The notes: generated by a model from the letters alone, not told the origin. A stretch of DNA of 19,970 nucleotides from Patescibacteria group bacterium (GCA_023480925.1 JAMCWY010000007.1:1-19970), one strand, 5' to 3'. Counted from the stretch's first letter, positions 604 through 19,970 are shown. Program-made: numbers and translations.

Positions 604-802
604 TTTTTCTTCCAAAATAATCTGACTAACTTTAATTTAATTATTATAACATAAATCGTAAATCTTTAAATCCCAGTCCAAAAATTTGAAATTTAGAATC
701 AAAAAATAAATTTTTAACTTACGATTTTAAACTTCGCCTTTGATGTTTTAAGATTAAAGTTTCAAAATTTTAGATTCTAAATTTTTCTTTTGAATCCATT
801 GA

Positions 803-2926
<2,124 letters not shown>

Positions 2927-2949
2927 TTAAATTGGTTTAGCCCGGCCGC

Positions 2950-3468: not shown

Positions 3469-3480
3469 TTTGACTTGAAA

Positions 3481-4041: not shown

Positions 4042-4047
4042 TTTATT

Positions 4048-4644: not shown

Positions 4645-5323
4645 TCCCGGTTATCCTGACTGAACTGGTGTTATTATTTAATGATAAACCCAAAAACAAG
4701 TTTTGCGAATTGCCACCAAAAGGCATGGCCGAGCCATCTTTGAATAAAAGCGGCCGACCGTAAGGCGAAGTAAAGATCGCCTCAAACCGATTAAACGAAA
4801 TCGGCTGAGCCAAACTCGAGGTCGCGATAGTTAAACTAACGCCGTTGAAATCATTCTCCAAAAGAGTACTTGAAGGAAAACTGTCGTGCGGGACAAAACT
4901 TAATCCGCTTGTCAAATCTAAATAAGTCGCCCCGTTTGAAAGAAGATTGAAAGACGAGCTGGCGACACTGGCGCAATTGATGGTCGAGGTGGCGTAGCCG
5001 ACAACTTGATAAGATGAAGTCGTGAAAATTAAACCAATACCGCAAACAGTTTGATTGCCGACCAAAGTCACGGACTCGAAACTTAGATGGGAAGCGGTTT
5101 GAAGATTATTAGTTAAAGTGATTATTTTCCGGTTTAGTTTCAAAAAATTCTGGTTTAAGGAAGTATACTTGATAAACAAACCAAAAATAATCGCGGTCGC
5201 CAAAAGAATTATCACCATTTCAACCAGAGTAAAAGCCCGAGGCTGAAAATTATTTTTCCTCCGTTTTAAAAAATCGTTCCGGTTTTCTGGCTGCCGCAAA
5301 CGCGCTATTTTTGTCATTGGCAT
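4619..5323 (-). CDS. Prepilin-type minor pilin
   Basis: ..FQPRA|FTLVEMVIILLATAIIFG is a prepilin motif with Glu at +5 and a hydrophobic helix. Confidence 0.7.
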   Translation of the reverse strand: MPMTKIARLRQPENRNDFLKRRKNNFQPRAFTLVEMVIILLATAIIFGLFIKYTSLNQNFLKLNRKIITLTNNLQTASHLSFESVTLVGNQTVCGIGLIFTTSSYQVVGYATSTINCASVASSSFNLLSNGATYLDLTSGLSFVPHDSFPSSTLLENDFNGVSLTIATSSLAQPISFNRFEAIFTSPYGRPLLFKDGSAMPFGGNSQNLFLGLSLNNNTSSVRITGIGQVILNQ

Positions 5324-5352
5324 CGTATTTTTATTCCTGCTGTAAATTTAAA

Positions 5353-6231
5353 CTAGCCCAAGCTTAACCAGTTAAAATAAAATTTGCTTAGCCAGCCGCC
5401 GCCAAACATTGTTATTATTATACCCAAAAAGAGAAACGGGACAAAAGGCACTTCTTGAAAAAATTTTTTCTTCGCCATCAACCTAGCCAAGCCGTAAATC
5501 GAACCAAAAAGAAAAGACAAAAATAAAGCCATAGCCAAATCGCCCCAGTTTAGAAACAAGCCCATTAAAAATATAACCTTGGCGTCGCCCAAACCCATAC
5601 CCCGGCCAAGAGTGGCGAGAAAAACAAAGACAAAAATAATTGAAAAAACATAGGCGCGAAAAAGCTGATCGGTCAATCTCAACGCTGGCGGGAAAAGGTA
5701 ATTAAATCGGCCGGTAAAATTTAAATTCTCAAACGTCTGTTTGATGAATCCGGGCAAGTGGCCGGCAAGCAGAAACGGCGCGAATTGAAAAATTAGCCAA
5801 ACAATAACGCCAAACCAAATAAACCGCTCGTCAATATAGGTTGTTTTAAAATCAAATAAGGCTAAAACAAAGATAATGCTCAAAAAAATTAAGTAATAAA
5901 TCGAGCTGAACCAAATTAAAAAGCCACCGTTAAAAAAGTTCCGGCCGGAAATATCGATAATACTAAAAGCCAAAAGACTGACCCAGACGCCGGTTAAAAT
6001 TTCGACAAGCGGATAACGCCAGGAAATTTTTTGGTCGCAATCGCGGCATCGACCCTTTTGAACCAAAAAACTGACGATCGGAATTAGTTCAAACCATCTT
6101 AGTTGTTTTAGGCAATTAGGACATTTTGATCGAGAAAAGATAAAATCCTCCTCCGCCTCCAAACGAAGAGCGATATTATTCAATAAACTGCCTAGAAAAA
6201 GACCAAAAATAAAAAACCCGATAAAAATCAT
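5353..6231 (-). CDS. pilD: Prepilin peptidase / N-methyltransferase (peptidase A24)
   Basis: A polytopic membrane protein. The N-terminal CPNC..(17)..CRDC module is followed by an A24-type core that includes GLGDAKV. Confidence 0.9.
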   Translation of the reverse strand: MIFIGFFIFGLFLGSLLNNIALRLEAEEDFIFSRSKCPNCLKQLRWFELIPIVSFLVQKGRCRDCDQKISWRYPLVEILTGVWVSLLAFSIIDISGRNFFNGGFLIWFSSIYYLIFLSIIFVLALFDFKTTYIDERFIWFGVIVWLIFQFAPFLLAGHLPGFIKQTFENLNFTGRFNYLFPPALRLTDQLFRAYVFSIIFVFVFLATLGRGMGLGDAKVIFLMGLFLNWGDLAMALFLSFLFGSIYGLARLMAKKKFFQEVPFVPFLFLGIIITMFGGGWLSKFYFNWLSLG

Positions 6232-6252
6232 CCCAAATTATAAACGATAAAA

Positions 6253-6282
6253 CTAAAAAGGAGAGCTGACTCCCCTTTTTAG
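6253..6282 (-). terminator. Intrinsic terminator between the major pilin gene and pilD
   Basis: A 13-bp stem with one mismatch (CTAAAAAGGAGAG / CTCCCCTTTTTAG) and a 4-nt loop. On the minus strand the GC core is followed by UUUUUAGUUUU. A second 12-bp hairpin (6284-6312) directly precedes it and contains the pilin stop codon. Confidence 0.55.
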
Positions 6283-6302
6283 TTTCAAACTAAGATTTAT
6301 TC

Positions 6303-6869
6303 TTAGTTTGAAGTACAAATATTATTGCCTGTGGTGCAAGTAGTTGGTGCAAAAGTACTTATAGTTCCTCCGTTCGATCCAGTTACAGTTGTTTGGCCAG
6401 CGCCATTGCAAGCCCAGTTGCTTGGGTATTGCGACGAAACTTGATAGATCTGAGGATTAGTCGTTGACGACTCTTCCAAAGTTGCCATTAAAACAAAATG
6501 GTTCGCTATACCACCGCCAGTCGCGCCCGGAGCAGTGTTACCCTGATCCGTACAAGCGAAGTAGTAATAACCATTCCGACCCGAAGGACTAACCGGCAAA
6601 CCAATACCACCGCCGGTAGTAACACCGCTGGCAGCCAAGTTGCCGTTCAAAGTACTCCAATCAGTCGTTGTTGGGAAATAACCGTTTTTCGACAAATATT
6701 GAGCCAAATAATTCGAGACATTTTTAAGATCGCCAACGCGTTTGGTGTCTCGAGCTTGAATCGCGGTTGAACCGATATTCCTAAGAACGATCGCAGCCAA
6801 AATGCCGATAACCAGAATAACAACTGCCAATTCGATTAAAGTAAAAGCTTTGTTGTTGATGCGACGCAT
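6303..6869 (-). CDS. pilA: Type IV major pilin paralog 1
   Basis: MRRINNKA|FTLIELAVVILVIGILAAIVL.. is a short leader plus the FTLIE motif. The C-terminal globular part contains Cys residues. Confidence 0.85.
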   Translation of the reverse strand: MRRINNKAFTLIELAVVILVIGILAAIVLRNIGSTAIQARDTKRVGDLKNVSNYLAQYLSKNGYFPTTTDWSTLNGNLAASGVTTGGGIGLPVSPSGRNGYYYFACTDQGNTAPGATGGGIANHFVLMATLEESSTTNPQIYQVSSQYPSNWACNGAGQTTVTGSNGGTISTFAPTTCTTGNNICTSN

Positions 6870-6902
6870 TTTTGTGATTGATTCTGTTAAACTTTAATTC
6901 GA
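6721..6902. repeat. 182-bp direct repeat, copy 1 (pilin 5' module plus 33 nt of leader)
   Basis: By my base-by-base reading it is identical to 7518-7699 (offset 797 nt). Identity ends sharply on both sides. Confidence 0.9.
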
Positions 6903-6986
6903 CCAGTTTAAAATATAAATAATTAAATTAAATAAAGATAATTTTCAATTTATAATTTTGCGACCTTTGTTTTTTATATTATATTT

Positions 6987-7015
6987 ATTTTATCTTTTAA
7001 TTTGAATTAAGTCAA
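6987..7015 (-). promoter_or_regulatory. Candidate promoter for pilin paralog 1
   Basis: On the minus strand: TTGACT (7015-7010), a 17-nt spacer, then TAAAAT (6992-6987). The intergenic region is very AT-rich, so specificity is low. Confidence 0.3.
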
Positions 7016-7060
7016 ATCAAAATGTGGATAACGAAAAGACGATTTTAATCAAAAATCCGT

Positions 7061-7666
7061 TTATTCCACGATACAATAGCCATCGGCACCTGGTAAACTA
7101 AGCGTGCAAGAGCTGGGCCAGTTATAAGGCGTGCAAAACCAACCCGGAGGACCGTTCCAATTATTAGGCTCGTTCCAACCGACACTGTCGCTATAAATCT
7201 GAGGATTAGAAGACGTGCTTTCCTCGATAAAAGTCTCCAAAGTAAAATGATCGGCCCGGCTGACCAAGATACTGCCATTTTGCAAGGTATAATCGTTAGC
7301 GTTGTCAGTGCAAGGAAAATAGTTGTAATAAGTTGTTTGGTTTGAAACGCGAGGCGGCATCGGCAACTGATCCATTGTCTGAATAATGCCGGCGGAAATT
7401 AAAGCTTGGCCCAATTCATTCCAAGCCACGCCGGCGACCATCGAATCATTGCTTGTCGCGGTTGTAGTTGGATAATAGCCATATTCCTGATAATACTGAG
7501 CTAAATAAATGGTAACGTTTTTAAGATCGCCAACGCGTTTGGTGTCTCGAGCTTGAATCGCGGTTGAACCGATATTCCTAAGAACGATCGCAGCCAAAAT
7601 GCCGATAACCAGAATAACAACTGCCAATTCGATTAAAGTAAAAGCTTTGTTGTTGATGCGACGCAT
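7061..7666 (-). CDS. pilA: Type IV major pilin paralog 2
   Basis: The first 51 aa are identical to paralog 1. The C-terminal part is diverged but homologous (..CTD.., EES(T/S)(T/S)(S/T)NPQIY..). Confidence 0.85.
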   Translation of the reverse strand: MRRINNKAFTLIELAVVILVIGILAAIVLRNIGSTAIQARDTKRVGDLKNVTIYLAQYYQEYGYYPTTTATSNDSMVAGVAWNELGQALISAGIIQTMDQLPMPPRVSNQTTYYNYFPCTDNANDYTLQNGSILVSRADHFTLETFIEESTSSNPQIYSDSVGWNEPNNWNGPPGWFCTPYNWPSSCTLSLPGADGYCIVE

Positions 7667-7699
7667 TTTTGTGATTGATTCTGTTAAACTTTAATTCGA
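7518..7699. repeat. 182-bp direct repeat, copy 2
   Basis: Identical to 6721-6902. Confidence 0.9.
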
Positions 7700-7786
7700 T
7701 CTTAAATTTCAACGAACGCGTGTTTGTGTTTAAGTTTAAATTTTAATCGCGATTTTGATAAAACCGAAAAATCCATAGGTCAAAGA

Positions 7787-8989
7787 TTAAAGCGACTGAA
7801 CCGCGCTCGTCAGCTTCAATAAAGGAATCATCAATGATAATTCGAGAAAAGCCAACCCGCCGGCCAAGATTAGAATCATAAAAGGCTGGATCAACTCGCC
7901 CAACGACGCGGTCTTGTTCTCAATATCGTCTTTAAAATAAAGGTTAATTCGGTCAATGCCTTCGACAAGCTGACCGGTTTTTTCGCCGGTCTGAATCGTC
8001 TGAATCACGATTGCCGGGAACAGATCCGGAAATAAAACCAGGCTTTCATAGATTCGCTTTCCTTTTCTTGTTTCGTCCGCGACGACATTGAGAGCTTTTT
8101 CGTAAATTGGGTTATCCATACTTCGGCCAATCGTGTCAAATGTTTCCGGTACCGTCACGCCGCCACGGACTAAAAAACTAAGCGACTCGAGAAATCGCGA
8201 CAAGTAAATTTCTTTTATGATTGAACCAAAAACCGGCGTATGATCCAAGGTCACGAACAAAAAAAGTTTACCCTCGGTTGTTTTAAAATAATTAACGCCA
8301 TAATAAATGGCGAAGCCCAAAAAGATAATAATGTAAAGCCAGTCATGAATTATAAAAATTGCGATGTCGTTGAATATTCTCGTGATTAACGGAACCTGAA
8401 CTTTCGCTTCGACGAAGATCTTGGTAATTTGAGGAATGACTTCGATCGATAGAGTCAACATTGTTCCGATAAAAATACAAAAAACAAAAATTGGGTAGTA
8501 AGAAGCTTGAAGAAATTTTTCCATAAACCTATTTTGATTTTCAAGATACTCGGCCAAATAGGCCAAAGTCTCATCTAAATTGCCCGAGACCTCACCGATC
8601 TCAACAATTCGAATGTAAAAAATTGAAAAAATTTTCGGGAACTTGGAAAAAGATTGAGACAAACTCATCCCGGCTTGAAGATTGCTGTAAAGATCGAAAA
8701 ATACGCTTTTAAGACTGTTTTTTTTCGAACTTTGGTAAAGCGCCCGAAGCGACTCATCCAACGGCACCCGCGCTTTAACCAGATATGAAAGCTGACGGGT
8801 GAAAAAAGCCACATCTTTAATCGTAATCCGGTCGAGAATTGGAATTCTAAAAGCATTAACCGGAGAAACTTTTGTTGGCGTTAGATTCTGATCGGACAAG
8901 TACTGATAAGCGGCATTGATGTCATTTCCCTCAACCACGCCTTCCTTGAAATTACCCTCCCGATCGAAAGCTTTAAAGTTAAACTTCAT
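7787..8989 (-). CDS. pilC: Type IV pilus platform protein (GspF/PilC family)
   Basis: 400 aa with two GspF-like repeats and three TM segments. Its start overlaps the pilT stop by 4 nt. Confidence 0.92.
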   Translation of the reverse strand: MKFNFKAFDREGNFKEGVVEGNDINAAYQYLSDQNLTPTKVSPVNAFRIPILDRITIKDVAFFTRQLSYLVKARVPLDESLRALYQSSKKNSLKSVFFDLYSNLQAGMSLSQSFSKFPKIFSIFYIRIVEIGEVSGNLDETLAYLAEYLENQNRFMEKFLQASYYPIFVFCIFIGTMLTLSIEVIPQITKIFVEAKVQVPLITRIFNDIAIFIIHDWLYIIIFLGFAIYYGVNYFKTTEGKLFLFVTLDHTPVFGSIIKEIYLSRFLESLSFLVRGGVTVPETFDTIGRSMDNPIYEKALNVVADETRKGKRIYESLVLFPDLFPAIVIQTIQTGEKTGQLVEGIDRINLYFKDDIENKTASLGELIQPFMILILAGGLAFLELSLMIPLLKLTSAVQSL

Positions 8990-10050
8990 TTTGAAACCAT
9001 AAACGATCTTAATCTTTCCGGATTAGGCGCGTACTGGAGTGCCATCTCGATTGAAATTTGGCCGGCCTCAACCAATGTAACCAAAGATCGCTCCAAAGTG
9101 ATCATGCCCTGATCAAAACTTGTTTCAACAACTAGATCAATCTGATAAATTTTATTTTCTCGAATCAGATTTTTAACCGCCGACGTCGCGAATAATATTT
9201 CAACCGCCGGAATCCGACCATTCTCGATCTTTGGAACCAAACGCTGGGAGACGACTCCGATTAAACTGGAAGCAAGTTGAAAACGCGCCTGGCTTTTAAC
9301 CGTTTCGGGCAAAACATCGATGATTCGATCGATCGTCTGAGCGGCCGAGTTGGTGTGGAGCGTGCCCAAAACCAAGTGGCCGGTCTCGGCCGCGGTTAAA
9401 GCGATCGCGATCGATTCGGCGTCGCGCAACTCACCAATCATAATTAAATCCGGATCTTCGCGCAAAGCCGCCCGCAAAGCCCTATGCCAATTGGGCGAAT
9501 CTTTCGGAATTTCCCTCTGTGAGACAATCGCTTTGTCCGAAGAAAACAAAAATTCAATCGGCTCTTCAATCGTGATAATATGAATACTCCGTTTATGGTT
9601 AATCTCGTCGATAAGCGAAGCCAGGGTAGTTGACTTGCCCATTCCGGCCGGGCCAGCGATCAAGATAAAACCCTGACGCCGGTCGGTTAGCTCGTGCAAA
9701 ACCGGCGGCAAATTTAACTCCTCAATCGTTTTAATCGAAGCCTGAATCAACCGGAAAGCACCCGACCAACCGTTTGTTTGTAAATAAACGTTGACGCGAA
9801 ATCTGACATCGTCGTTTAAACCGAAGGAAAAGTCTAAGTCCTTCGCCTTGGCCAAACGTTCTTTTTGATCTTGATCCAAAATTGAAAATAAAATTTTTTC
9901 CGTTTCTCTGGCAACCATAATACCGTTCTCGGCGATTGAAATCAGTTCGCCGTCAATCCGCAAAGACGGAAATCGGCCCGGAACAATATGTAAATCCGAA
10001 GCATTCCGTTTTACCGCCAGTTCGAGCAAGTTTTTCAACTGTTCGTCCAT
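8986..10050 (-). CDS. pilT: Twitching-motility retraction ATPase
   Basis: 354 aa. It has Walker A GPAGMGKST, the Asp box/Walker B DPDLIMIGELRD, the His box TGHLVLGTLHTNSA and a PilT-type AVKNLIRE motif. Confidence 0.92.
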   Translation of the reverse strand: MDEQLKNLLELAVKRNASDLHIVPGRFPSLRIDGELISIAENGIMVARETEKILFSILDQDQKERLAKAKDLDFSFGLNDDVRFRVNVYLQTNGWSGAFRLIQASIKTIEELNLPPVLHELTDRRQGFILIAGPAGMGKSTTLASLIDEINHKRSIHIITIEEPIEFLFSSDKAIVSQREIPKDSPNWHRALRAALREDPDLIMIGELRDAESIAIALTAAETGHLVLGTLHTNSAAQTIDRIIDVLPETVKSQARFQLASSLIGVVSQRLVPKIENGRIPAVEILFATSAVKNLIRENKIYQIDLVVETSFDQGMITLERSLVTLVEAGQISIEMALQYAPNPERLRSFMVSK

Positions 10051-10079
10051 TGTTTATTTTTTGGTTAATTTTTAAATTT

Positions 10080-11804
10080 TTAAGTTATTTTAACAATTTC
10101 TTCAAGATTGACAAGCCCAGCCAACGCCTTTAAAATTCCATCTTGACGCAAACTGATAAAATTTTGCTTCGGCAACAACTTTGCCACTTCTTCTTCGGTT
10201 AAACCTTGATAAACCGCGTTTTTAATCTCGTCAGTTATCAAAACCACTTCAAAAATTCCGATTCGGCCAACAAAGCCTTTAAAATTACACTTTTGACAGC
10301 CCTGAGGATAATAAATTTGGTAGTTATCGCCTTTGGCGTACTTGTCGGTCAAACCGCCGGGCAGATTTTTGAAACTTTCGTTGATAATCTTTTTAAAATT
10401 TTCGTCAGCGTCTTTCTTAACCTTGCAATCATCGCAAAGCCGCCGAGCCAGACGTTGGGAAATTAAAAGCAAAATTGTTTGAGGTAGAAGAAACCGCTCG
10501 ATGCCAATGTCAACTAAACGCGTAATCGTCCCAAGAGCGTTATTGGTATGAATGGTTGAAAGAACGAGATGGCCAGTCAAAGAAGCGTGAACCGCCAACT
10601 CGGCCGTTTCCCGATCGCGGATTTCACCGACTAAAATAATGTCCGGGTCTTGTCTTAAAATTTCTCTTAAGCCGGTCGCGAAGGTATAGTTGATTTCCGG
10701 CTTAACTTGAGACTGGTTAACGCCGTCAATCTCATACTCAACCGGATCCTCCAAGCTAACCAAATTGACATTCTCTTTATTTAATTCTTGAAGCATGGCG
10801 TAAAGGCTGGTCGTCTTGCCCGAACCGGTCGGCCCGCTGATCAAAATCATTCCGAACGGCCGCTTGATTGCCGCTTTGATTTTGTCAAAATTAAAATCAG
10901 AAACGCCGATCTCGGGCAAACGCTTAAGGCCAACGCTTGGATCGAGAACTCTGATCGCGACCTTCTCCGTTCCCGCGACCGGCAAAATGCCGACGCGAAA
11001 ATCAATTTCACGGTCTTCAACCCAGGCTCGAAAACGGCCGTCTTGAGGCACCCGCGTCTCTTCAATTTTCATGTCGGCCAAAATTTTAATCCGATTGATC
11101 AGCTGATAATGAATATCCTTGGGGAAATAAGCGACGGTTTTAAGATCGCCTTGGATTCGAAAACGCAGTCTGGTCCGATCGCTCAAAGGTTCAAGATGAA
11201 CATCGGAAACTTTTTGAGCAACGCCTTCGGAAATAATAAACTCAATCAGTTTGATCACGGGCGCCTCCTCGGTCGGCAAAACTTCTTCGGTCAAACGAAC
11301 AATCTCTTTAGTCTGATCGTAAGGTTTGCGTTCGCGAAACTGATTAATCAAACCTTTCAGCTCTTTGCTAAAAAGATGATACTGGCGAATGGCGAAATAA
11401 AAATCGTTGAACGAAATTAAAAAAATCTTCGGCTCAACCCGAAGCGAGGTTTTAATGAACTCGATCGCCTCGGTTAAGTTTGGTTGGTTCGGATTAACCA
11501 CACCGATGTCGACTTCGTTATTCCGGTGATCGAAAGCGACGATCTGATAAACCTTGGCCGTATTCTCGGGGATAATCGTTAAAACTTTTTCGTCGATAAT
11601 TTCGTCTTGGTTGAAAACTTTAACCGGTAATTTAAAAATCTCTTTTTTAATTTTCAAAATCTCCTGGCCCGAAACGCGATTGGTTTGATAAAGATACTCT
11701 TCCAAACCAACCTTCCTTTCTTTAGCTGCCTCCAACCACGATTGGATTTGATCCGGGTAAAGTTCTTTAATCTTATTAGTTAAAGTTTCTTCCACGTTTG
11801 GCAT
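10080..11804 (-). CDS. pilB: Type IV pilus assembly ATPase (GspE/PilB family)
   Basis: 574 aa. An N-terminal GSPII-type domain is followed by GPTGSGKTT, DPDIILVGEIRD, TGHLVLSTIHTNNA and the tetracysteine motif CDDC..CQKC. Confidence 0.93.
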   Translation of the reverse strand: MPNVEETLTNKIKELYPDQIQSWLEAAKERKVGLEEYLYQTNRVSGQEILKIKKEIFKLPVKVFNQDEIIDEKVLTIIPENTAKVYQIVAFDHRNNEVDIGVVNPNQPNLTEAIEFIKTSLRVEPKIFLISFNDFYFAIRQYHLFSKELKGLINQFRERKPYDQTKEIVRLTEEVLPTEEAPVIKLIEFIISEGVAQKVSDVHLEPLSDRTRLRFRIQGDLKTVAYFPKDIHYQLINRIKILADMKIEETRVPQDGRFRAWVEDREIDFRVGILPVAGTEKVAIRVLDPSVGLKRLPEIGVSDFNFDKIKAAIKRPFGMILISGPTGSGKTTSLYAMLQELNKENVNLVSLEDPVEYEIDGVNQSQVKPEINYTFATGLREILRQDPDIILVGEIRDRETAELAVHASLTGHLVLSTIHTNNALGTITRLVDIGIERFLLPQTILLLISQRLARRLCDDCKVKKDADENFKKIINESFKNLPGGLTDKYAKGDNYQIYYPQGCQKCNFKGFVGRIGIFEVVLITDEIKNAVYQGLTEEEVAKLLPKQNFISLRQDGILKALAGLVNLEEIVKIT

Positions 11805-11807
11805 TGG

Positions 11808-12107
11808 TTATTCAAATATATTCTGTTTGCCAATTTCCGAAGGCGTCAAAGTTGGAATAGTTAGGCTTTGGGCCGGCGGAACAAGATTTTTCAAATTATT
11901 CGCCGCCTGATTAATATCATATTTTTGAATATAATTCATCTCGTTTTGAATCCGAGTCATTTCCGGCGAAACCGGCGCTTCTTTTTTCAAAATGCCGAAA
12001 TGCCATAACAACAACCAGCCAGCCAAACCAACGAAGACAAGAACGATCAAACTGAGACCAAGATCAAGCCAAGATGATTTTTTATTTTTATCGAAATTAA
12101 TTTTCAT
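11808..12107 (-). CDS. Small single-pass membrane protein, pilus-locus associated
   Basis: 99 aa with one TM helix (WLDLGLSLIVLVFVGLAGWLLLW). It is coupled to the upstream gene through an overlapping TAATG stop/start. No family was recognised. Confidence 0.5.
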   Translation of the reverse strand: MKINFDKNKKSSWLDLGLSLIVLVFVGLAGWLLLWHFGILKKEAPVSPEMTRIQNEMNYIQKYDINQAANNLKNLVPPAQSLTIPTLTPSEIGKQNIFE

Positions 12108-12688
12108 TATTTTGTCGTTGGCGCGTTTGGATTAATCAGCTTAACCGGCAGAAGATAATAGGTTTGATAGATTAAATCGGCTTTAGTTCCGCTCGCCGTC
12201 CGATTCAAACTCATTTCGTTCAAATCAAAAAGACGGCTGTAATTATAAATTGAATTAAATAGACCGATTAAATGGGGATAATCGCCGTTATAGGTTAGAT
12301 GAAAAACTTCCGGTTGAAGCGACTGAATATTCAACTCCGGCAAATCAATTGTGGTCCCGGCGATAAAATTGATATTTTGCAATTCAGCCGCGCCGTTCGA
12401 ACTTAAAATTTGGTTCAAGATCAAACTCGTCTCGTCATTTTTGAACGTTCGCGGCAGATAAATATCGAGGTACGGCTGGCTCGAGACCAAAGATTGAATG
12501 TTGGCGCTTTGGCTCAAAGTTTGACTTAGATTTTGTAAAACCTTAACCTTGGCCAACTCGATTTTTTGCTCGTTGTTCTTTTCAATTAAACTTAAATCCG
12601 AACGATAATTCGGCAGAATACCTCTGAACAATAACGAGATAATGCCGATGATTAAAAAGACGATAACAAGATTAATGATTAGGCGCAT
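12107..12688 (-). CDS. PilO-like pilus alignment protein (tentative)
   Basis: An N-terminal TM helix is followed by a predicted coiled region, and the gene sits in the pilM-N-O position. The call rests on architecture and synteny only. Confidence 0.5.
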   Translation of the reverse strand: MRLIINLVIVFLIIGIISLLFRGILPNYRSDLSLIEKNNEQKIELAKVKVLQNLSQTLSQSANIQSLVSSQPYLDIYLPRTFKNDETSLILNQILSSNGAAELQNINFIAGTTIDLPELNIQSLQPEVFHLTYNGDYPHLIGLFNSIYNYSRLFDLNEMSLNRTASGTKADLIYQTYYLLPVKLINPNAPTTK

Positions 12689-13190
12689 TGAAAAGATTTT
12701 TGTTTAATTTGCCATCAAAGGTCAAATCAACCGCGCCCGTCTTTGAATCAATATTGAAATCATCGTTCAAATCAGTAAAGTTTGGACTCGTTTTGAAATA
12801 AGCGATGACTCGAACCGCCTGAAAAAGATTCGGCACTGTTCCTTTAATTTCAAAGACGCCGGTTTGAACGTCAACCTGAAAGCTCTTGACAGTTAGTTCT
12901 TTCGGCAAGGTATTATCGATATTGTTCAAAAGAACAACCGGCGATCGGCGTTGACCGATCAATTTTTCCAGGTAAAGAAATTGGATAAACGCGCTGTATT
13001 CTTTGCCGCTTAAAGCATTCAAATTCAAACTGTTGATGGTACCGTCAATTTTGTTTTTATTTTGGCTGATAGTGTTGTTTAAACGTCCTTGCCAAAAAAT
13101 CAAACCGAAGTTAGCCGACCAGAGCAAGCCGTAGGCGGCGGCCAGAACTAAAATTAATTTAACCGGCGCGGTTTGAAGAAAATCTTTCAT
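12672..13190 (-). CDS. PilN-like pilus alignment protein (tentative)
   Basis: A single TM helix near the N-terminus, directly downstream of pilM. I did not see the canonical INLLP motif. Confidence 0.45.
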   Translation of the reverse strand: MKDFLQTAPVKLILVLAAAYGLLWSANFGLIFWQGRLNNTISQNKNKIDGTINSLNLNALSGKEYSAFIQFLYLEKLIGQRRSPVVLLNNIDNTLPKELTVKSFQVDVQTGVFEIKGTVPNLFQAVRVIAYFKTSPNFTDLNDDFNIDSKTGAVDLTFDGKLNKNLFNAPNH

Positions 13191-13223
13191 TGATTTTTCC
13201 CTCTTGGCCCAAGGTCAAGACGA

Positions 13224-14285
13224 TTATTTTATTTTATCAAAAAAATATTTAAAACAAGCGCCCAAGGCTTGGCTCAAAACCGGTCCGCGCTTCAACTCAA
13301 CGCCCTTAACCCGGCTAGGCAAAATAATTTTATCGAAAGGGTCCATTAAAGCGATTGGGAATTTGGTTATTTTCGACGCGAGCAAATTCAAAAAACCAGG
13401 CGCTAAAACTAAACCGCCGGTTAAGAGCAAAGTATCGATATTAATCAAAAATCTTTCTTCAACTTCGTTAACCGACTGAGTTAGTTCGTTCGCCAAATTG
13501 CCAACGAAATTAAAAATATTCGCCTGAAGATCGCTCTCCTCGGGCGGCAAATTAAAACCATTCTCAACCAAAAAATCTTCGGCTCGATCGAAAACAACGT
13601 TCATCATTGTCGCCATCGATTGAATCAAATCGTACGCTCGGAATTGAATTTTTTTGCCGTAGATTATTTTATTCTGGTGGAAAACCAAAAACAAAGAATA
13701 ACTCGTGCCCAAATCAATGATGGCCTTAGGCGACGTATCAACCAAAAACGGCTCAATCGCCAAGAATTCCGGAATAGTTTTGCGCAATTTTAAACCGGCG
13801 ATCATCGAAGCATTTTGAAATTTTTCAATTAAATTTTTGGGCGAGGCGACCATAAAAATCAGCCAACGCGGTTGGCTTTCTTGCTGATAAATATTTTGGA
13901 ATTGGAAAGCGCGCCAATCAATCGCCACCTCGTCCGCGGCGATCGGAATATACTTGCTTGCCTCGTAAATGATGGCGTTTTTTAAATTTTTTTCCGAAAT
14001 CAACGGCAAAGAAAAAAAAGAGGAAAAGAGCAAGTTAGCCGGCAAGACGAAAATCGCCTCCCGCGTCTTAAAATCTTTCGTCACCTCGCCCAAGAGTTGG
14101 CCAAGATTTTCCTCAAAAGTCTGAGACGTATCGAGCAAACGGCCAAACTGCTCCGACCAAGACAAAGACGTGATAGAATAATTTAAAAGCTTGATATTGC
14201 GGTTCACTTTTTCCGTCTCCACCACTTTGATGTGTTTTGAACCCAAATCAATGCCAAGAATTTTATTTTGACCGAAAATGGACAT
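13224..14285 (-). CDS. pilM: Type IV pilus assembly protein PilM (actin-like ATPase fold)
   Basis: MSIFGQNKILGIDLGSKHIKVVE.. is the typical PilM N-terminus. The start is taken at the ATG at 14285, because the longer ORF to 14351 is just the antisense of comF. Confidence 0.85.
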   Translation of the reverse strand: MSIFGQNKILGIDLGSKHIKVVETEKVNRNIKLLNYSITSLSWSEQFGRLLDTSQTFEENLGQLLGEVTKDFKTREAIFVLPANLLFSSFFSLPLISEKNLKNAIIYEASKYIPIAADEVAIDWRAFQFQNIYQQESQPRWLIFMVASPKNLIEKFQNASMIAGLKLRKTIPEFLAIEPFLVDTSPKAIIDLGTSYSLFLVFHQNKIIYGKKIQFRAYDLIQSMATMMNVVFDRAEDFLVENGFNLPPEESDLQANIFNFVGNLANELTQSVNEVEERFLINIDTLLLTGGLVLAPGFLNLLASKITKFPIALMDPFDKIILPSRVKGVELKRGPVLSQALGACFKYFFDKIK

Positions 14286-14976
14286 TCTTAAATTATACCA
14301 AAAAACCAAAGAAGGACTGACCCAAGTTTTAGCCCCGTCTTTTTGTTTCAACTGCCAAAAACTTTTACGCGATCAATATCTTTGTTCCAACTGCCTACTT
14401 GAAACAAATTTTAGTTTGGATCTCTGCTGCCCATTTTGCGATCGGCGCAAACCTTTTATCGTCAACCCGGCCAAAATCTGTTGCCACAACTTTCTCTCAA
14501 GCCTGATTTATTTCGGCCAGTATGAAAACAAACCGATCAACCAACTGATAAAAACCGCCAAATATCAAGGTTATTTCACGATTTTTGACTGGCTCGGCGG
14601 TCTAATGGCGGGGAAACTGAAACAATTAAGATTTTCTCCCGATTACAAACTCGTCCCCATTCCCCTTCACCCCAAACGTTTTAAAGAACGCGGTTTTAAC
14701 CAGGCCGAGGTTATCGCCAATCAAATCAGTTCTTTGACCGGTTTGGAAGTTAAAAATAGCCTGATTCGAATCATCAACAACCAAAGCCAAGCGAGTTTAA
14801 CCGGAAAAGATCGGGAGCAAAACGTTAAAGGAATTTTTAAAACAATCGAGCCAACGCCGAAAAAAATCATTTTGATTGATGATGTTTGGACCACCGGCGC
14901 GACTCTAATCGAAGCAAGCAAAACATTAAAAGCAAATAATGCTAAAATTATCATAGGCTTGACAATTTTGAAATAA
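14278..14976 (+). CDS. comF: ComF-family protein (phosphoribosyltransferase-type competence protein)
   Basis: An N-terminal Cys-rich finger (CFNC..CSNC..CPFC) plus the PRTase motif IILIDDVWTTGATL. Confidence 0.85.
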   Translation: MDILKLYQKTKEGLTQVLAPSFCFNCQKLLRDQYLCSNCLLETNFSLDLCCPFCDRRKPFIVNPAKICCHNFLSSLIYFGQYENKPINQLIKTAKYQGYFTIFDWLGGLMAGKLKQLRFSPDYKLVPIPLHPKRFKERGFNQAEVIANQISSLTGLEVKNSLIRIINNQSQASLTGKDREQNVKGIFKTIEPTPKKIILIDDVWTTGATLIEASKTLKANNAKIIIGLTILK

Positions 14977-15142: not shown

Positions 15143-15217
15143 GCCCCTATGGTGAAACGGACATCACACTGGTCTTCGGAACCAGCATTGGAGGTTCGAA
15201 TCCTCCTAGGGGCACCA
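15143..15217 (+). tRNA. tRNA-Arg (anticodon UCG), CCA encoded
   Basis: Hand-folded cloverleaf. The acceptor stem is GCCCCTA/TAGGGGC and the D stem is GTGA/TCAC with a GG loop. The anticodon stem is CTGGT/ACCAG with loop CT-TCG-GA. The T stem is GGAGG/CCTCC with loop TTCGAAT. Discriminator A and CCA follow. Confidence 0.93.
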
Positions 15218-16718
15218 GAATAAAACTAGACGGCTTTTTGGAAGCCATTTGGTGGGCGGCCCGCAAGGCCGCCCATTGAGTTTGCCCCGATGAATCCTTG
15301 CCGCTCGGCGCGCGCAGGCGCGCCTCGCGGTTGGCCAAAACGAGGTTCGAGCCGAAAAGTTTTTCGGCGGCAACCTTTTTCTCAAAAAGGTTGCTCTCTT
15401 GTGCGATTTTAGGCAAGGAACTTGCCTCTTTTATCCATTCTGCCATCGGTTCGAGCCAGCCAGTCCGCTTTTGTTCAAGTCGGGTAGATTGCTCCTCCAG
15501 CGACTTCTTTTCGGAAAGTAATTTTGCTTTTTCCACGCGATAAATTTCACGGTCAATGTCTTGCTCCAAATAACCATCAAGAAGTCGCTGAAGTTTAAGC
15601 GAGATGGTTTTTATTTTCTCTCGCGCTTCTTGAACAAAAGCGGTTGAGGATTGGGCGGCTCCGATTTTTTCTTTTTCAAGTTTGGCGCTTAGTTTTGCCG
15701 CCCAATCCGGCCTCAAAGAAAATTTTTGAAGCAGAGAGGATAACTGCCGATCCAGTTCTTCCTCGCGCACATATGGCTGACCACACTGGATATTCTTCTT
15801 GGTGCAACGATAGTAAGTATGACCTTTTTGGATTTCGGCAGTTATCATGCGTCCACACTCCCCACATCGCAGTAAACCAACAAATGGTTTTTCAACCTTA
15901 CCTTTAGTTTTTGGTTTGCCTCTCTGCTTCAATACATCTTGAACTTTATCAAAAATTTTCTTTGAGACGACTGGCTGGTGCTTGCCCTCGTGGATTTCAC
16001 CGCCATAGCGAAAATGGCCATAGTAGAAGGGATTGGAAAGGATAAAAGTAATTCTGTCTCGGTGGAGTCGCTTGCCGTTTTTGGAATGGACACCGGATTG
16101 CGCCAAAAAATTGGAAATATCCTCAAGACGAGAGTGGTTCTGTGCATATAGCTCAAACGCTCTACGAATGATTGAGGCGCGTTTTTTGTCCACAATGATA
16201 GATTTATTGCGAACGTCATTTATGTATCCTATTGGAGCTAAACTGGTGTATTCTCCGCGCCTCACTTTTTGGCGCAATCCTCGTTTGGTGTTCTCGGCAA
16301 GCGAATCCACATAGTATTTGCTTTGCCCAAAGGCGATACTCAACATAAATTTTCCTTGCGATGTATTTTCTGCCCAAAAGGTTGGAAATTTGAGTATCGC
16401 CAAATGCCCGCAATCCAAAAGATAGATAATGCGTCCACCGTCAACAGAATTGCGCGCCAGTCTGTCGGGATGCCAGGCCAAAATTCCGTTGGCTTCACCA
16501 GCTTCAATACGTTTTATCATTTCACCAAAAATCAGTCTGCCCGGAATTTTGGCCGACTGTTTTTCTACAAGCTCCTCGATAATGTTCAGTCCTTCGGTTT
16601 TCGCAAAGGCGTGCAATTCTGTGATCTGCGCTTCAATACTCAACACCTGCTTGTCCTCAACATCGGTGGACTTGCGGGCATACAAAAAGAATTTTTGCGG
16701 TGAAATAATTTTGTCCAT
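15147..16718 (-). CDS. Large serine recombinase (resolvase/invertase catalytic domain, recombinase domain, zinc ribbon, coiled coil)
   Basis: It has YARKSTD (the nucleophile Ser context), HPDRLARN, the recombinase domain, the zinc ribbon CGECG..YYRC..C and a long coiled coil. The last ~68 codons are encoded by IR-L and the antisense of the tRNA, so that tail is probably not a real domain. Confidence 0.9.
   Translation of the reverse strand: MDKIISPQKFFLYARKSTDVEDKQVLSIEAQITELHAFAKTEGLNIIEELVEKQSAKIPGRLIFGEMIKRIEAGEANGILAWHPDRLARNSVDGGRIIYLLDCGHLAILKFPTFWAENTSQGKFMLSIAFGQSKYYVDSLAENTKRGLRQKVRRGEYTSLAPIGYINDVRNKSIIVDKKRASIIRRAFELYAQNHSRLEDISNFLAQSGVHSKNGKRLHRDRITFILSNPFYYGHFRYGGEIHEGKHQPVVSKKIFDKVQDVLKQRGKPKTKGKVEKPFVGLLRCGECGRMITAEIQKGHTYYRCTKKNIQCGQPYVREEELDRQLSSLLQKFSLRPDWAAKLSAKLEKEKIGAAQSSTAFVQEAREKIKTISLKLQRLLDGYLEQDIDREIYRVEKAKLLSEKKSLEEQSTRLEQKRTGWLEPMAEWIKEASSLPKIAQESNLFEKKVAAEKLFGSNLVLANREARLRAPSGKDSSGQTQWAALRAAHQMASKKPSSFILVPLGGFEPPMLVPKTSVMSVSP
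15213..15349. repeat. Left 137-bp inverted repeat (IR-L)
   Basis: Its reverse complement equals 16887-17023 at 136/137 positions. The single mismatch is 15288 C versus 16948 A. It starts inside the tRNA 3' end (C-A-CCA). Confidence 0.95.
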
Positions 16719-16886: not shown

Positions 16887-17023
16887 CGAACCTCGTTTTG
16901 GCCAACCGCGAGGCGCGCCTGCGCGCGCCGAGCGGCAAGGATTCATCAGGGCAAACTCAATGGGCGGCCTTGCGGGCCGCCCACCAAATGGCTTCCAAAA
17001 AGCCGTCTAGTTTTATTCTGGTG
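16887..17023. repeat. Right 137-bp inverted repeat (IR-R)
   Basis: Reverse complement of 15213-15349 (136/137). A further 16 nt (16871-16886) match 15396-15411 across a 46-nt gap in the left arm. Confidence 0.95.
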
Positions 17024-17244
17024 TATTTATACAACCAAGCTCGAACGTATTTTAGCAGAAATTTCTGACCAAAGGAAGCCGCCCCGCCGCCGCTCGCTAA
17101 CGCTCGCCAGCCAGCAAAAAAGTTTTCTTCGCTTTTCCTGATGTACGCGCGACCGATTTTTTCTTCTAAAAAGGAAGGGGATATTTTTCTGCTCGGTTCC
17201 GCCCTCCAAGTATTCGGGCGGTGCGGCGGGGCTAACAATGCGGG

Positions 17245-17305
17245 CGAGGCAAAGCAAAACTATTTTTGCGGGAGGAAAAGGATTTGCTTTGCCTCGACTT
17301 TTTTT
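17245..17305 (+). terminator. Plus-strand intrinsic-terminator-like hairpin with no plus-strand gene upstream
   Basis: A 14-bp perfect stem (CGAGGCAAAGCAAA / TTTGCTTTGCCTCG) with a 24-nt loop that is partly self-pairing, followed by AC and T7. Confidence 0.4.
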
Positions 17306-17377
17306 GTGCGGGGATTTGGTATCCGCCGCGCAGGAGGGTGCGGGAGGAATGCGCGGCGGATTTTCGCGGGCAAGGCC

Positions 17378-17434
17378 GCAAAAAAGAAAACCTCGCAGTC
17401 CATCCAGAAAAATCTGAAATGAAACTGCGAGGTT
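17378..17434 (-). terminator. Intrinsic terminator of the minus-strand operon
   Basis: An 11-bp stem (AACCTCGCAGT / ACTGCGAGGTT) overlaps the stop codon at 17433-17435. On the minus strand it is followed by UUCUUUUUUG. The loop is long (24 nt). Confidence 0.55.
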
Positions 17435-18008
17435 AGGGTTGCTGACGAAAGAACTGCTGGAGATAGCTGGCGTAGATCGTTTGAGCAACTTTTGGCACTT
17501 GATTTTCTTCCGAGACAATCTCGAAATCGTAGATTCCGGCGTGTCTGGAAGATTCCAGTACTTCCAGCTCTTCGCGTGCGCTCCGCAAGCGATGTCCGTT
17601 CGTATCCCTGTCGTCTCTCGCCAATCGTCGCTGTAGAGCTTCGATGGATGGTGGTGAAATGTACACGATATAGAGCTGATCCGGGAATGCTTCCGTCATT
17701 ACGCTTACTCTGCCGATTGGCCAATCAAGCACGGGGAAGTTACCCTCCTTCAATGCTTGTTCGATTGGTTGGCGAGGTGTTGCATAGCGAACACCGTAAA
17801 GTTCGTTAATCACGAGGAACTCTCCTCGTTCCAACATCTCATCCATCTCTCCGCCGCTTACGGAAATCTTGTTTCTCTCTCCCTTCCGAAGTGGACGAGT
17901 CATGAATGGCGAGATGTACACGAATCTACTATCCAGTCGAATCAACTCATCGATTATCGAGTTCTTGCCGACGCCCGATGGTCCCAAGAGAAGCAGAAAC
18001 TTGCTCAT
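17433..18008 (-). CDS. Guanylate-kinase-family P-loop nucleotide kinase
   Basis: It has GPSGVGKNS (P-loop), TRPLRKGE, ERGEFL, YGVRYATP and ISPPS..L..RL. The RBS is GGAGGGAGGG. Its ATG overlaps the upstream stop (ATGA). Confidence 0.8.
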   Translation of the reverse strand: MSKFLLLLGPSGVGKNSIIDELIRLDSRFVYISPFMTRPLRKGERNKISVSGGEMDEMLERGEFLVINELYGVRYATPRQPIEQALKEGNFPVLDWPIGRVSVMTEAFPDQLYIVYISPPSIEALQRRLARDDRDTNGHRLRSAREELEVLESSRHAGIYDFEIVSEENQVPKVAQTIYASYLQQFFRQQP

Positions 18009-18850
18009 CTCGCCCTCCCTCCTTCCTTATTCAGAGCCTCTTTCAATTCAACCGCCGCTTTCTCAACCGCGCTTTGCCAGAATTGCTTACTTTGTTGCGG
18101 ATAAAGAATGCCACGCGATGAATTGATGAACGCTCCGGTGCCTTCAGAATTGAGCAGTTTGCGCAAGTCGGTATAACTGCCGCCTTGAGCACCTACCCCA
18201 GCGAGAAGAATCGGCATGTTGTCGGGGACAATCGTGCGAATCTCCTCCATGTTAAGTCCAGCAGTCGAGGAAAGCACGAGAATCATGTTTTCACTACGAT
18301 TCCAGCGATTTATCACAAGATCGAGCACATGCCGCCAAAGTGGTTGACCGTCTTGTATGACGACGTCCTGGACGATACCGCCGGATGGATTACTTGTCTT
18401 GACAAGAACCACAATGGATTTATCCGTCAGTTCGACAAGAGGAAGCATGACATCATCTCCCATGTAGGGATTGACGACAATGCCATCCGCTTGGAGTAAA
18501 CCGAACAGATTTTGAATGTACGCCTCCATCGTGTTTTCGATATCGCCGATCTTGCAATCGACAATAACAGGAACGCCTTGGTTCGACGTATGAATGTAGT
18601 CAATCAGTTCTTTCAAAACATCGTGACCGCCATTCAACACATCAAAGAAAGCCTTCTGTGCCTTGAAGGCGCAGACATGTGGCGCCGTTACATCGATTAC
18701 TCCCCGAAGAAATGCGAGTACCTTCTCCTCATCGGAAGTATTCCCTACGGTGATTTCAGGCGGCATTTTCTTCAGGTCGGGATCGAGCCCACAACACAGA
18801 AGCGTGTTATGAACTCTCATCCGTTCAAGGATTTGTTCATTCGCTTTCAT
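18005..18850 (-). CDS. pyrF: Orotidine-5'-phosphate decarboxylase, type 2 family
   Basis: It has LCCGLDPD, DCKIGDIENT (the D-x-K-x-x-D-I-x-x-T motif) and GVGAQGG. The start is taken at the ATG at 18850, which is preceded by AAGGAGATAAAA. The ORF-track start at 18928 would overlap the upstream gene by 92 nt. Confidence 0.85.
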   Translation of the reverse strand: MKANEQILERMRVHNTLLCCGLDPDLKKMPPEITVGNTSDEEKVLAFLRGVIDVTAPHVCAFKAQKAFFDVLNGGHDVLKELIDYIHTSNQGVPVIVDCKIGDIENTMEAYIQNLFGLLQADGIVVNPYMGDDVMLPLVELTDKSIVVLVKTSNPSGGIVQDVVIQDGQPLWRHVLDLVINRWNRSENMILVLSSTAGLNMEEIRTIVPDNMPILLAGVGAQGGSYTDLRKLLNSEGTGAFINSSRGILYPQQSKQFWQSAVEKAAVELKEALNKEGGRAR

Positions 18851-19658
18851 TTTTATCTCCTTTTTTGATGAGACCCTTGTGGCCGAGATGATCCTGCTTT
18901 GCTTGCAGGTGCAGTTTTGTGTGTTCATTCGGCTCGATAACGACGGGTATATAATCCGCCACCGTATAGCCGTTTTCAGCGAACACGTCCGCCTTCTTGG
19001 GATTGTTAGTCGCTAAGTTAATCCGGCACGTTGTTGGAATGCCGAAAAACTTGAGGATACAGATGACACCCGAATATGTCCGAATGTCGATCACTCCCCC
19101 GGGGGCAAGCAGAGAAGCCGACTCCACAGTGTTGACACCAAGCACGTCCTGGATCCACAGTGTCGCGAGCTTAAAGGTAAGCCCCATACCCCGGCCGTCT
19201 TGGCGTGGGATATTGATGAGCATTCCTTCACCGACTTCTTCGATTGCCTTTAGTGCGAGATGAAGTTGATCGCGACACTCACATGTTAGATCGCCAAAGA
19301 CTTGGCTAGTTTCGCAACCGGAGTCGGTACGCAAAACGAGTTGGTCTTTGTTTTTGAACACGGGGACAAGTAGGTCTTTGTTCAACTCTGCCTTGACCAT
19401 CACGGAATATTTCTCCCACTGATCATCGATCGCAAAGTTGTACTGCCAGAACTTGCCGTGCTCGGTTTTGAGAATACCGATGCCTCTCCGCTCAACTGCG
19501 TAATAGCGGGTGACGCCATTCTCGTTGACGCTGAAGCGTTTTGAGAACGGCTCCATCGAGCGTTTCAGCAGTTCGAGAAAAGCACTGACTCCTTCGGCTG
19601 ATATATTCGATCTCTCGCAGATGTCAGCCATGCTCGGCGGTTTAATTCCGTTTTTCAT
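18837..19658 (-). CDS. GTP cyclohydrolase II-family protein with a ~55-aa N-terminal extension
   Basis: It aligns by eye to E. coli RibA: SGCETSQVFGDLTCEC (three Zn Cys), RQDGRGMGL, TNNPKK and a C-terminal ..HLGHKG. The RBS is GAGGAGG, 5 nt before the ATG. Confidence 0.8.
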   Translation of the reverse strand: MKNGIKPPSMADICERSNISAEGVSAFLELLKRSMEPFSKRFSVNENGVTRYYAVERRGIGILKTEHGKFWQYNFAIDDQWEKYSVMVKAELNKDLLVPVFKNKDQLVLRTDSGCETSQVFGDLTCECRDQLHLALKAIEEVGEGMLINIPRQDGRGMGLTFKLATLWIQDVLGVNTVESASLLAPGGVIDIRTYSGVICILKFFGIPTTCRINLATNNPKKADVFAENGYTVADYIPVVIEPNEHTKLHLQAKQDHLGHKGLIKKGDKNESE

Positions 19659-19970
19659 CGTTACCTCCTCTTTCTGGATTGTAAGTATTTCTAGTTTGCT
19701 GCGCTGGCGGATAAACGCCGTCGCTTTTCTTTTTCACGAATGAGCCGTGAATCAGTCGAAAGGCCAACCTCCTCTCCGCTTCGTAGACCATCGGCGTGCC
19801 GATAAGCGCGCCGCATTTCGGACATTTGAGGTTTGGCATGTCGGCTTTGCTGCTCATCTTCGATTGCAAAAGCGCGAGCTCTTGCGGCTCAAAGATTCGG
19901 TCGAGATACATTCGGAGCAATCGGCCGTGCCCATCTTTTTGATAGAGGGAGAAATATTCCGTGATGGTCA
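19642..19970 (-). CDS. Hypothetical protein with a CPKC zinc-ribbon-like motif, probably 5'-truncated by the window edge
   Basis: The frame stays open to 19970 (..TITEYFSLYQKDGHGRLLRMYLDRIF..). The ORF-track start at 19920 is a TTG. It overlaps the next gene by 17 nt. No family was recognised. Confidence 0.45.
   Translation of the reverse strand, partial: TITEYFSLYQKDGHGRLLRMYLDRIFEPQELALLQSKMSSKADMPNLKCPKCGALIGTPMVYEAERRLAFRLIHGSFVKKKSDGVYPPAQQTRNTYNPERGGNDEKRN

Follow-up and report, generated by a model that had tools for sequence, protein, structure and literature searches.

Our analysis of a 19,970-nucleotide (nt) stretch of DNA from a Patescibacteria group bacterium (GCA_023480925.1 JAMCWY010000007.1:1-19970; hereafter the window, which is an entire contig) revealed four adjacent minus-strand genes, at 17433-19970, that are one conserved, translationally coupled unit rather than ribA, pyrF, and gmk brought together by chance. 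Specifically, they encode a small zinc protein (ZnR), a RibA-derived, zinc-dependent protein resembling GTP cyclohydrolase II (GCH2L), a type-2 orotidine-5'-phosphate (OMP) decarboxylase (OMPDC), and a P-loop kinase of the guanylate-kinase/PhnN fold (GmkL). The four proteins probably act as one functional unit, in a physical complex, whose task is nucleotide handling in cells that depend on a host and are poor in biosynthesis. The reading that we favor, to which we give a probability of about 0.4, is that of a pyrimidine-nucleotide module, leading from OMP through uridine monophosphate (UMP) to uridine diphosphate (UDP), that is joined to a RibA-derived nucleoside triphosphate (NTP) cyclohydrolase. 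We rate the module as a nucleotide salvage or conversion operon of repurposed enzymes, each of them a variant of a known family.

In the window, the genes follow one another in the order ZnR (19642-19970, with the open reading frame (ORF) called at 19642-19920+), GCH2L (18837-19658; 273 amino acids (aa)), OMPDC (18005-18850; 281 aa), and GmkL (17433-18008; 191 aa). The three enzymes were recognized by their matches to PF00925 (GTP_cyclohydro2; E 3e-23), PF00215 (OMPdecase; E 1e-18), and PF00625 (Guanylate_kin; E 3.5e-18), respectively. Successive ORFs overlap by 17, 14, and 4 nt, and a GGAG-type ribosome-binding site is recognizable before every downstream start. The single intrinsic terminator of the operon (17380-17434, minus strand) is real, given that the stop codon of the kinase sits inside a 46-nt hairpin (17389-17434; dG -26.5 kcal/mol, z -5.5, matched by 0 of 200 shuffles) that is followed by a U-run to 17380. 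The coupled genes, their overlaps, and their shared terminator, as described in a first-pass annotation made from the sequence alone, are thus confirmed by the ORFs, the ribosome-binding sites, and the hairpin. That annotation had also regarded the operon as truncated at the window edge, and the first gene is indeed incomplete: it is cut by the contig end, only its 3' two-thirds are present, its frame stays open up to the window edge, and the product of the gene caller is 108 aa long. The edge is the end of the whole contig, and it bears an inverted copy of nearby sequence, in that the final 27 nt (19944-19970) are the reverse complement (26 of 27 positions) of 19394-19420 inside the GCH2L gene and stand where the true 5' part of the ZnR gene should be. 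This terminal copy is most likely an assembly fold-back artifact. An exact-match look-up of the window GCH2L found no other contig carrying the same sequence, and an Rfam search of the window and 12 related loci returned only tRNAs and the end of a 16S rRNA gene, with no riboswitch or other regulatory RNA in the module or upstream of it.

The evidence that these genes belong together comes from other genomes. Scanning of GTDB, with one genome for each species, yielded 47 loci, and 49 related loci were mapped. They occur across classes of the candidate phyla radiation (CPR), namely, the Magasanik-, Yanofsky-, Uhr-, Andersen-, Azam-, Moran-, Nomura-, Lloyd-, and Peribacteria, WWE3, and Saccharibacteria, as well as in DPANN archaea (Micrarchaeota, Marsarchaeota, and others), in a Babeliales bin, and in an unclassified bin of the same gene layout. 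A few carrier bins are labeled Gammaproteobacteria or Gemmatimonadetes, and we suspect that these labels are misassigned. The order ZnR-GCH2L-OMPDC-GmkL was retained in 23 of the 49 loci, with differing flanks, and at least three further loci hold all four functions, two of them with the decarboxylase and the kinase fused and one in the order GCH2L-OMPDC-GmkL-ZnR-ZnR. ZnR lies near GCH2L in 38 of the loci. The overlaps recur as well, with lengths of 14 and 4 nt in one locus (L001) and 11, 1, and 4 nt in another (L005). Clustering of the flanking ORFs revealed no fifth conserved partner, and no family beyond the module proteins recurred in more than five of the 49 flanks, which were not screened with rib models.

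Gene fusions point in the same direction and are known for every neighboring pair of module proteins. The OMPDC-GmkL fusion forms 28 protein clusters and the GCH2L-OMPDC fusion at least 12; GmkL-ZnR fusions form at least five clusters at 50% identity (L061, P0377, P0404, P0434, and P0471), ZnR-GCH2L fusions were found in L038 and P0375, and ZnR is also joined to an NTPase_1 protein (P0497). In the DPANN genome of L061, the whole module consists of two polypeptides, GCH2L-OMPDC and GmkL-ZnR. Variant modules exist in which the partners are exchanged. In L033-L035, a cytidylate kinase and an NTPase_1 protein follow ZnR-GCH2L and replace OMPDC and GmkL, and in the Peribacteria, GCH2L lies opposite an AAA_28 kinase, ZnR, and OMPDC, with PyrG nearby. 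These variants suggest that the P-loop family is interchangeable and ZnR constant, with partners that are pyrimidine-nucleotide enzymes. The first-pass annotation had known of no canonical pathway that combines these enzymes, and had offered a lack of colocalization elsewhere as the sign of chance co-occurrence; the former view stands, and the conserved order, the synteny across phyla and both domains, and the fusion of all neighboring pairs contradict the latter. The absence of rib genes, and of pyr genes other than pyrF, holds for the 20-kb window and the flanks of the 49 loci, but not as a genome-wide claim. A literature search on CPR bacteria turned up no account of this combination of genes.

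Two further observations concern the variant loci. In the Peribacteria (L039, L043, L051, and L052), two or three AAA_28 kinases surround ZnR-OMPDC, PyrG and a gene resembling dihydroorotate dehydrogenase lie nearby, and GCH2L is followed by a protein of ~380 aa that has no Pfam match and carries a HAD-like DxDxT motif. In the unclassified bin (L037, 767-3945) and the Babeliales bin (L046, 7119-8489), the longest module ORFs start with hydrophobic, signal-peptide-like segments, which are uncertain for some of the proteins because of alternative internal start codons.

The decarboxylase is, as judged by its sequence, a canonical type-2 PyrF and the sole canonical member of the module. It scores 191.3 bits against a cut-off of 110.6 for the equivalog model TIGR02127 (pyrF type 2) and keeps the GLDP, Lys, DxKxGD, KTSN, GxGAQGG, and SRG elements when aligned to 3QW3/3QW4 and 4MJZ. 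Its best match in the PDB is the Leishmania enzyme that combines OMPDC with orotate phosphoribosyltransferase (OPRT). The module decarboxylase resembles UMP synthase (OPRT-OMPDC) and type-2 PyrF in being a type-2 OMPDC that is often fused to the enzyme of the adjacent gene; it differs from UMP synthase in what it is joined to, namely, a RibA-like enzyme and a Gmk-like kinase in place of OPRT.

GCH2L, in contrast to the decarboxylase, departs from its parent family. Like GTP cyclohydrolase II (GCH II; RibA), it has the PF00925 fold and the zinc site CX2GX7CXC, in which C115, C126, and C128 are invariant and the Gly of the motif is Ser in the window copy. A survey of 50 family members against Escherichia coli RibA (2BZ0), in which the roles of the catalytic, zinc, and phosphate residues have been described (PMC10366380), showed the nucleophile Arg128, the triphosphate-binding Arg49, Arg94, and NNPxK, and Lys101 to be retained in nearly all sequences. 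GCH2L nevertheless falls below every NCBIfam RibA cut-off (108 versus 148 bits for NF001591 and 89.9 versus 205.85 bits for TIGR00505) and has an N-terminal extension of ~50 aa relative to RibA. Further, the catalytic Tyr105, on which the usual outcome of ring opening and deformylation by RibA depends, is Leu in the window copy; 48 of the 49 surveyed members that cover the site have Leu or Met there, and the remaining one has His. Five more positions are replaced across the 50 members (His51 by Asp, Glu53 by Gly, and Asp58 by Gln or Met, with Glu127 and Asp129 also changed), and these, like Tyr105, are presumably near the base. This pattern of conservation suggests that the phosphate, pyrophosphate-release, and zinc machinery is intact but that the presumed base-proximal residues are altered. 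Given the loss of Tyr105, formation of the normal GCH II product is unlikely, contrary to the earlier proposal of a GCH II step yielding the usual pyrimidine. The genomic setting also differs from the riboflavin context of RibA, in that ribD, ribH, ribE, and ribB did not recur near GCH2L in the flank clustering, which included no screen with rib models.

Homologues of GCH2L form 388 clusters at 90% identity; the 120 clusters listed share 60-92% identity, and every named one among them comes from CPR-type metagenome bins. More distant relatives (37-42% identity, also with Leu105) are present in oral and other Saccharibacteria (L047-L050 and L053), where they stand without ZnR, OMPDC, or GmkL among repeated small proteins of unassigned function.

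GmkL retains the PF00625 fold, the P-loop, and the phosphate-binding motif TRxxRxGE, which it shares with Gmk and PhnN, and its loop for binding the nucleoside monophosphate (NMP) is short, as it is in PhnN. It differs from both in scoring well below their cut-offs (84.4 versus 160.45 bits for Gmk, TIGR03263; 47.1 versus 156 bits for the PhnN ribose 1,5-bisphosphokinase, TIGR02322) and in its repeated fusion to ZnR and OMPDC. Contact residues were compared through a family alignment with yeast Gmk and an alignment with the Staphylococcus aureus Gmk structure 2J41. In yeast numbering, the family as a whole has replaced Glu69 by Val or Ala, Asp100 by Pro (in an invariant LDWP motif), and Tyr78 by Arg, and a three-residue deletion removes the loop of Tyr50. 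In yeast Gmk, Glu69 and Asp100 serve guanine recognition, and Tyr50 and Tyr78 phosphate binding. With its guanine-binding residues lost, GmkL is unlikely to feed the GTP pool, a role that had been suggested for it at first.

ZnR is the least familiar of the four proteins. Full-length relatives are 121-140 aa long and carry two CxxC pairs, of which the window copy retains one, the second; the label "Zn-ribbon" given to it in the first-pass annotation is hence valid by homology, not from the window copy alone. The family is invariant at C31, C34, C81, and C84 and in the motif YQKDGxGxLxRxYxDRI, and it comprises 561 clusters (50% identity) in a profile search. Neither Pfam nor NCBIfam has a family for it, and profile searches against the PDB gave no name either; the Pfam models Yippee and At4g08330 matched at E 0.004-0.06, below their cut-offs, and the ribosomal protein eS27 matched marginally (E 0.02). 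A confident AlphaFold (AF2) model (pLDDT 86) had no significant PDB neighbor in Foldseek. As had been proposed as a check, we examined the Foldseek list for this protein, and beta-tent zinc folds head it, none at significance: the best matches (E >= 0.09, TM 0.34-0.54) include many CULT domains of bacterial cereblon, which bind uridine, and YPEL5, Mis18, MsrB2, and a RIG-I-like helicase (DRH-1) also appear repeatedly in this list. ZnR resembles the beta-tent domains (CULT, Yippee/Mis18, MsrB, and the RIG-I C-terminal domain) in being a small beta-rich domain with two CxxC pairs ~47 residues apart, within the spacing of ~45-60 residues between the two knuckles that characterizes the beta-tent, CULT, and Yippee proteins, and it is predicted to bind one zinc. 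It differs from them and from eS27 in that it lacks the tri-Trp cage and its YQKDG...R.Y.DRI motif is family-specific. About 15 loci hold an additional, shorter paralogue of ZnR (~97-137 aa) that shares the YQKDG...DRI motif and usually lies just upstream or downstream of the module (e.g., L001, 12310-12636, and L059, 3158-3508). In the window, which stops too soon on one side, no such copy is seen.

In the reading that we favor, the type-2 decarboxylase would convert OMP to UMP; GmkL, with ZnR as its substrate-binding partner, would phosphorylate the same NMP to the diphosphate; and GCH2L would use a nucleoside triphosphate from the same pool, with release of pyrophosphate (PPi), while a zinc-activated water opens or otherwise alters the base. 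The pyrimidine theme derives from the canonical PyrF and from the variants that carry a cytidylate kinase and NTPase_1 (L033-L035) or have PyrG nearby (Peribacteria); the nonsignificant matches of ZnR to uridine-binding CULT domains also speak for it. The closest functional analogy is URC1 of yeast and bacteria, a GCH II homologue tied to a UMP-forming enzyme, and Andersen and colleagues reportedly described, in 2008, a linkage of URC1 to upp in bacteria. In the URC pathway of uracil breakdown, URC1 acts with URC6, a UMP-forming uracil phosphoribosyltransferase (UPRT) (PMC7530994). The module would share with this pathway a GCH II homologue that is tied to a UMP-forming enzyme and that acts, as URC1 does, on uracil nucleotides and outside flavin synthesis. 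It departs from it in that the UMP-forming partner is OMPDC, not UPRT, and in that GCH2L scores 17 bits against the 419-residue model NF005536 (cut-off 403), which we assume to represent the URC1-type family. Neither a URC4-like nor a urea-amidolyase partner recurred in the ORF clustering of the 49 flanks, which involved no search with URC4 or upp models.

Several points weigh against this reading. GCH2L is far closer in sequence to RibA (108 bits) than to NF005536 (17 bits), and GTP therefore stays its default substrate. No source of OMP was seen, PyrE being present in the flanks of just one of the 49 loci (L032), and de novo nucleotide synthesis is reportedly absent from 93% of Patescibacteria genomes (bioRxiv 10.64898/2026.06.21.733656). 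Building UDP and then opening UTP looks wasteful, the assignment of the modeled ZnR to the beta-tent fold is not significant (best E 0.09), and the fusions reveal coupling, not the order of steps. The module fits neither riboflavin nor de novo pyrimidine synthesis, and it fits neither the URC pathway nor known defense systems. That it matches no described pathway points to undescribed nucleotide chemistry, although we think it rather doubtful that this chemistry is categorically new. Equally tentative is the broader proposition of a metabolon, limited to ultra-small prokaryotes that depend on hosts (CPR, DPANN, and Babeliales-like bins), whose chemistry lacks a described counterpart, be it a PyrE-independent formation of OMP or UMP through the RibA fold and a zinc subunit, or the conversion of an NTP to a base-altered nucleotide that the kinase and ZnR rephosphorylate.

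Other explanations of the module start from the same enzymes. In one, which we consider unlikely and to which the modified-nucleotide and purine-to-pyrimidine ideas of the first-pass annotation correspond, the module is a special-nucleotide route from GTP, with GCH2L producing the formylamino compound AFRPP, as a GCH-III-type enzyme would, or another non-flavin pyrimidine, and with the decarboxylase and the kinase-ZnR pair processing and rephosphorylating it. That GCH2L is closest to RibA and retains nearly all phosphate, ribose, and zinc residues is consistent with this route, as is the replacement of the catalytic Tyr by a hydrophobic residue, which recalls a RibA homologue of Streptomyces coelicolor: its Tyr is Met, as in several GCH2L members, and Spoonamore and Bandarian reportedly found in 2008 that it stops at AFRPP. 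AFRPP is a normal intermediate of the RibA reaction (PMC9478397), a role outside flavin synthesis is known for one S. coelicolor RibA homologue (PMC13151069), and GCH II feeds non-flavin pyrimidines in the vicine pathway of plants (bioRxiv 10.1101/2020.02.26.966523). The S. coelicolor homologue differs in organism and gene context, however, and GCH2L has more base-proximal substitutions and has partner proteins. A GCH II-type step takes an NTP to an NMP, so a downstream NMP kinase of new base specificity would fit, and the gene and fusion order (GCH2L-OMPDC-GmkL-ZnR) is colinear with such a chain. The difficulty lies with the decarboxylase, which is canonical at every substrate-contacting motif and above the PyrF equivalog cut-off, whereas AFRPP and DARPP, unlike OMP, carry no carboxylate, and there is no plausible hydrolytic path from GTP to a 6-carboxy-N1-ribosyl pyrimidine; nor does a deaminase, reductase, or formamidase recur in the flanks of the 49 loci. 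The initial suggestion that the decarboxylase processes a GCH II product is not supported, the enzyme being canonical for OMP, which the two known products of GCH II do not resemble. The idea that a direct conversion of purine to pyrimidine supplies the decarboxylase was dropped for want of a plausible GTP-derived, carboxylated, OMP-like intermediate. Of the salvage route once proposed for a biosynthetically poor cell, the salvage itself fits the CPR, DPANN, and Babeliales-like distribution. Less likely again is a displacement of OPRT, in which GCH2L and ZnR would supply OMP (or UMP/CMP in the variants with cytidylate kinase) without PyrE and the kinase would finish UDP; the chemistry might use GTP as a phosphoribosyl donor or involve a ring closure at the level of the nucleotide. 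In this sense, the decarboxylase is an orphan, with no PyrE in 48 of the 49 flanks and in lineages mostly without de novo synthesis; GCH2L-OMPDC fusions mirror the OPRT-OMPDC arrangement of UMP synthase, as does the best PDB match; the order of steps would equal the gene order; the nonsignificant fold matches of ZnR bind uracil-like rings; and both reactions release PPi and give a nucleoside monophosphate. Yet the RibA fold has no chemical precedent for such a reaction, and the PyrE gene of L032 adjoins GCH2L and an OMPDC-like gene, which suggests that these proteins work together rather than replace one another.

The remaining explanations are more remote. We regard as very improbable that the module is a mobile conflict or defense cassette that consumes GTP, as the first-pass annotation had entertained, or poisons nucleotide pools. 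The serine recombinase and tRNA gene that adjoin the module in the sub-lineage of the window, the long inverted repeats that bracket it in L007 and L008, its G+C content of ~0.49-0.50 against 0.36-0.44 for much of the window, and the stand-alone contigs of ~2.8 kb found in many metagenomes would suit such a cassette. PADLOC, though, returned no meaningful defense system, its sole hit being a weak mad8 match to the kinase (E 0.009), only a generic Gmk PHROG matched, and none of the viral contigs scanned carries the module. The architecture has no sensor or effector; the GCH2L gene and a long OMPDC-like gene of a Paceibacterota bin (L041, 1-7053) lie, as read from translations, between rplB and rpsS in a ribosomal-protein operon; the module of L061 stands between SecY and DNA polymerase B; and inverted repeats or a recombinase were not seen at most loci. 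Slimmer still are the chances of ordinary housekeeping ribA, pyrF, and gmk genes that share an operon, an explanation that is largely refuted: the three enzymes do match the expected Pfam families and the decarboxylase is canonical, but GCH2L and GmkL are well under their equivalog cut-offs and have lost function-defining residues, the four-way fusion network and the cross-domain synteny oppose chance, and an unannotated fourth protein, ZnR, is associated with the enzymes at 38 of the 49 loci, with no rib genes recurring nearby in a clustering that included no rib-model screen. Two more candidates were considered and dropped, namely, a riboflavin remnant and a role in RNA 5'-end capping or processing (by the kinase and a guanylyl-transfer-like RibA step), the latter because a canonical OMP decarboxylase has no place in it.

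The module bears on a large share of microbial diversity, that of the CPR bacteria and DPANN archaea, most of which reportedly cannot make nucleotides. It is both widespread and strongly conserved, with ~390 clusters of GCH2L at 90% identity and ~560 of ZnR at 50% identity, and it presents a RibA fold recruited outside flavin synthesis, a retargeted guanylate-kinase fold, and a new zinc family that is paired with several unrelated P-loop kinases. Automated annotation of its genes as ribA, pyrF, and gmk would mislead metabolic reconstructions of the organisms that carry it, and, as a defined four-protein system, it is open to cloning and reconstitution.

The surroundings of the module in the window suggest that it has moved laterally in this sub-lineage, the grounds being an adjacent serine recombinase, a tRNA gene, long inverted repeats, and a raised G+C content. 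The large serine recombinase (15147-16718, minus strand; 523 aa) overlaps, at its 3' end, a tRNA-Arg(TCG) gene (15143-15217, plus strand) at the edge of the recombinase-module region, and it is bracketed by a 137-nt inverted repeat of 99% identity (15213-15349 and 16887-17023). The same layout of recombinase and tRNA-Arg, with a 150-nt inverted-repeat pair, stands beside the module in an independent assembly of a Magasanikbacteria bin (L007, 3196-5019); the recombinase, the inverted repeats, and the tRNA-Arg could form a self-contained invertible or integrative element. G+C content is 0.485-0.505 over the module, ~0.44-0.48 over the recombinase, and 0.36-0.44 over much of the window, with local peaks of 0.47. 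Between the recombinase and the module lies a repeated element of ~140 nt (17225-17364). It contains two GC-rich hairpins, with a T-run after the second, and matched no Rfam family. Copies were found in L007 (1-119 and 2870-2988), L008 (268-704 and 3429-3841), and L035 (3572-3719); the copy in a bin labeled Saccharibacteria is 87% identical. In L007 and L008, the element is inverted on both sides of the module, within inverted repeats of 110-440 nt that bracket it. Most loci show neither inverted repeats nor a recombinase. The earlier description of a "mobile island" is partly supported, for the sub-lineage of the window only.

On a wider scale, the module has evidently spread laterally and been exchanged across domains. 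In the sub-lineage of the window, a further sign of lateral movement is that the module DNA shares 78-86% identity with that of bins placed in other CPR classes, and dozens of metagenome contigs of ~2.76-2.95 kb (including L054-L058) consist of exactly the four-gene module, one of them (L054) with a 30-nt inverted terminal repeat. Assemblies that break at the module edges in this way are consistent with repeats or with several genomic contexts. The remaining part of the window (1-14976) has the content typical of a CPR/Patescibacteria genome, with the 5' end of a 16S rRNA gene at 1-75 on the minus strand, an NAD-dependent DNA ligase (LigA), a ComF-type phosphoribosyltransferase, and a type IV pilus cluster made up of PilD, two pilins, PilC, a PilT-like protein, PilB, and PilM.

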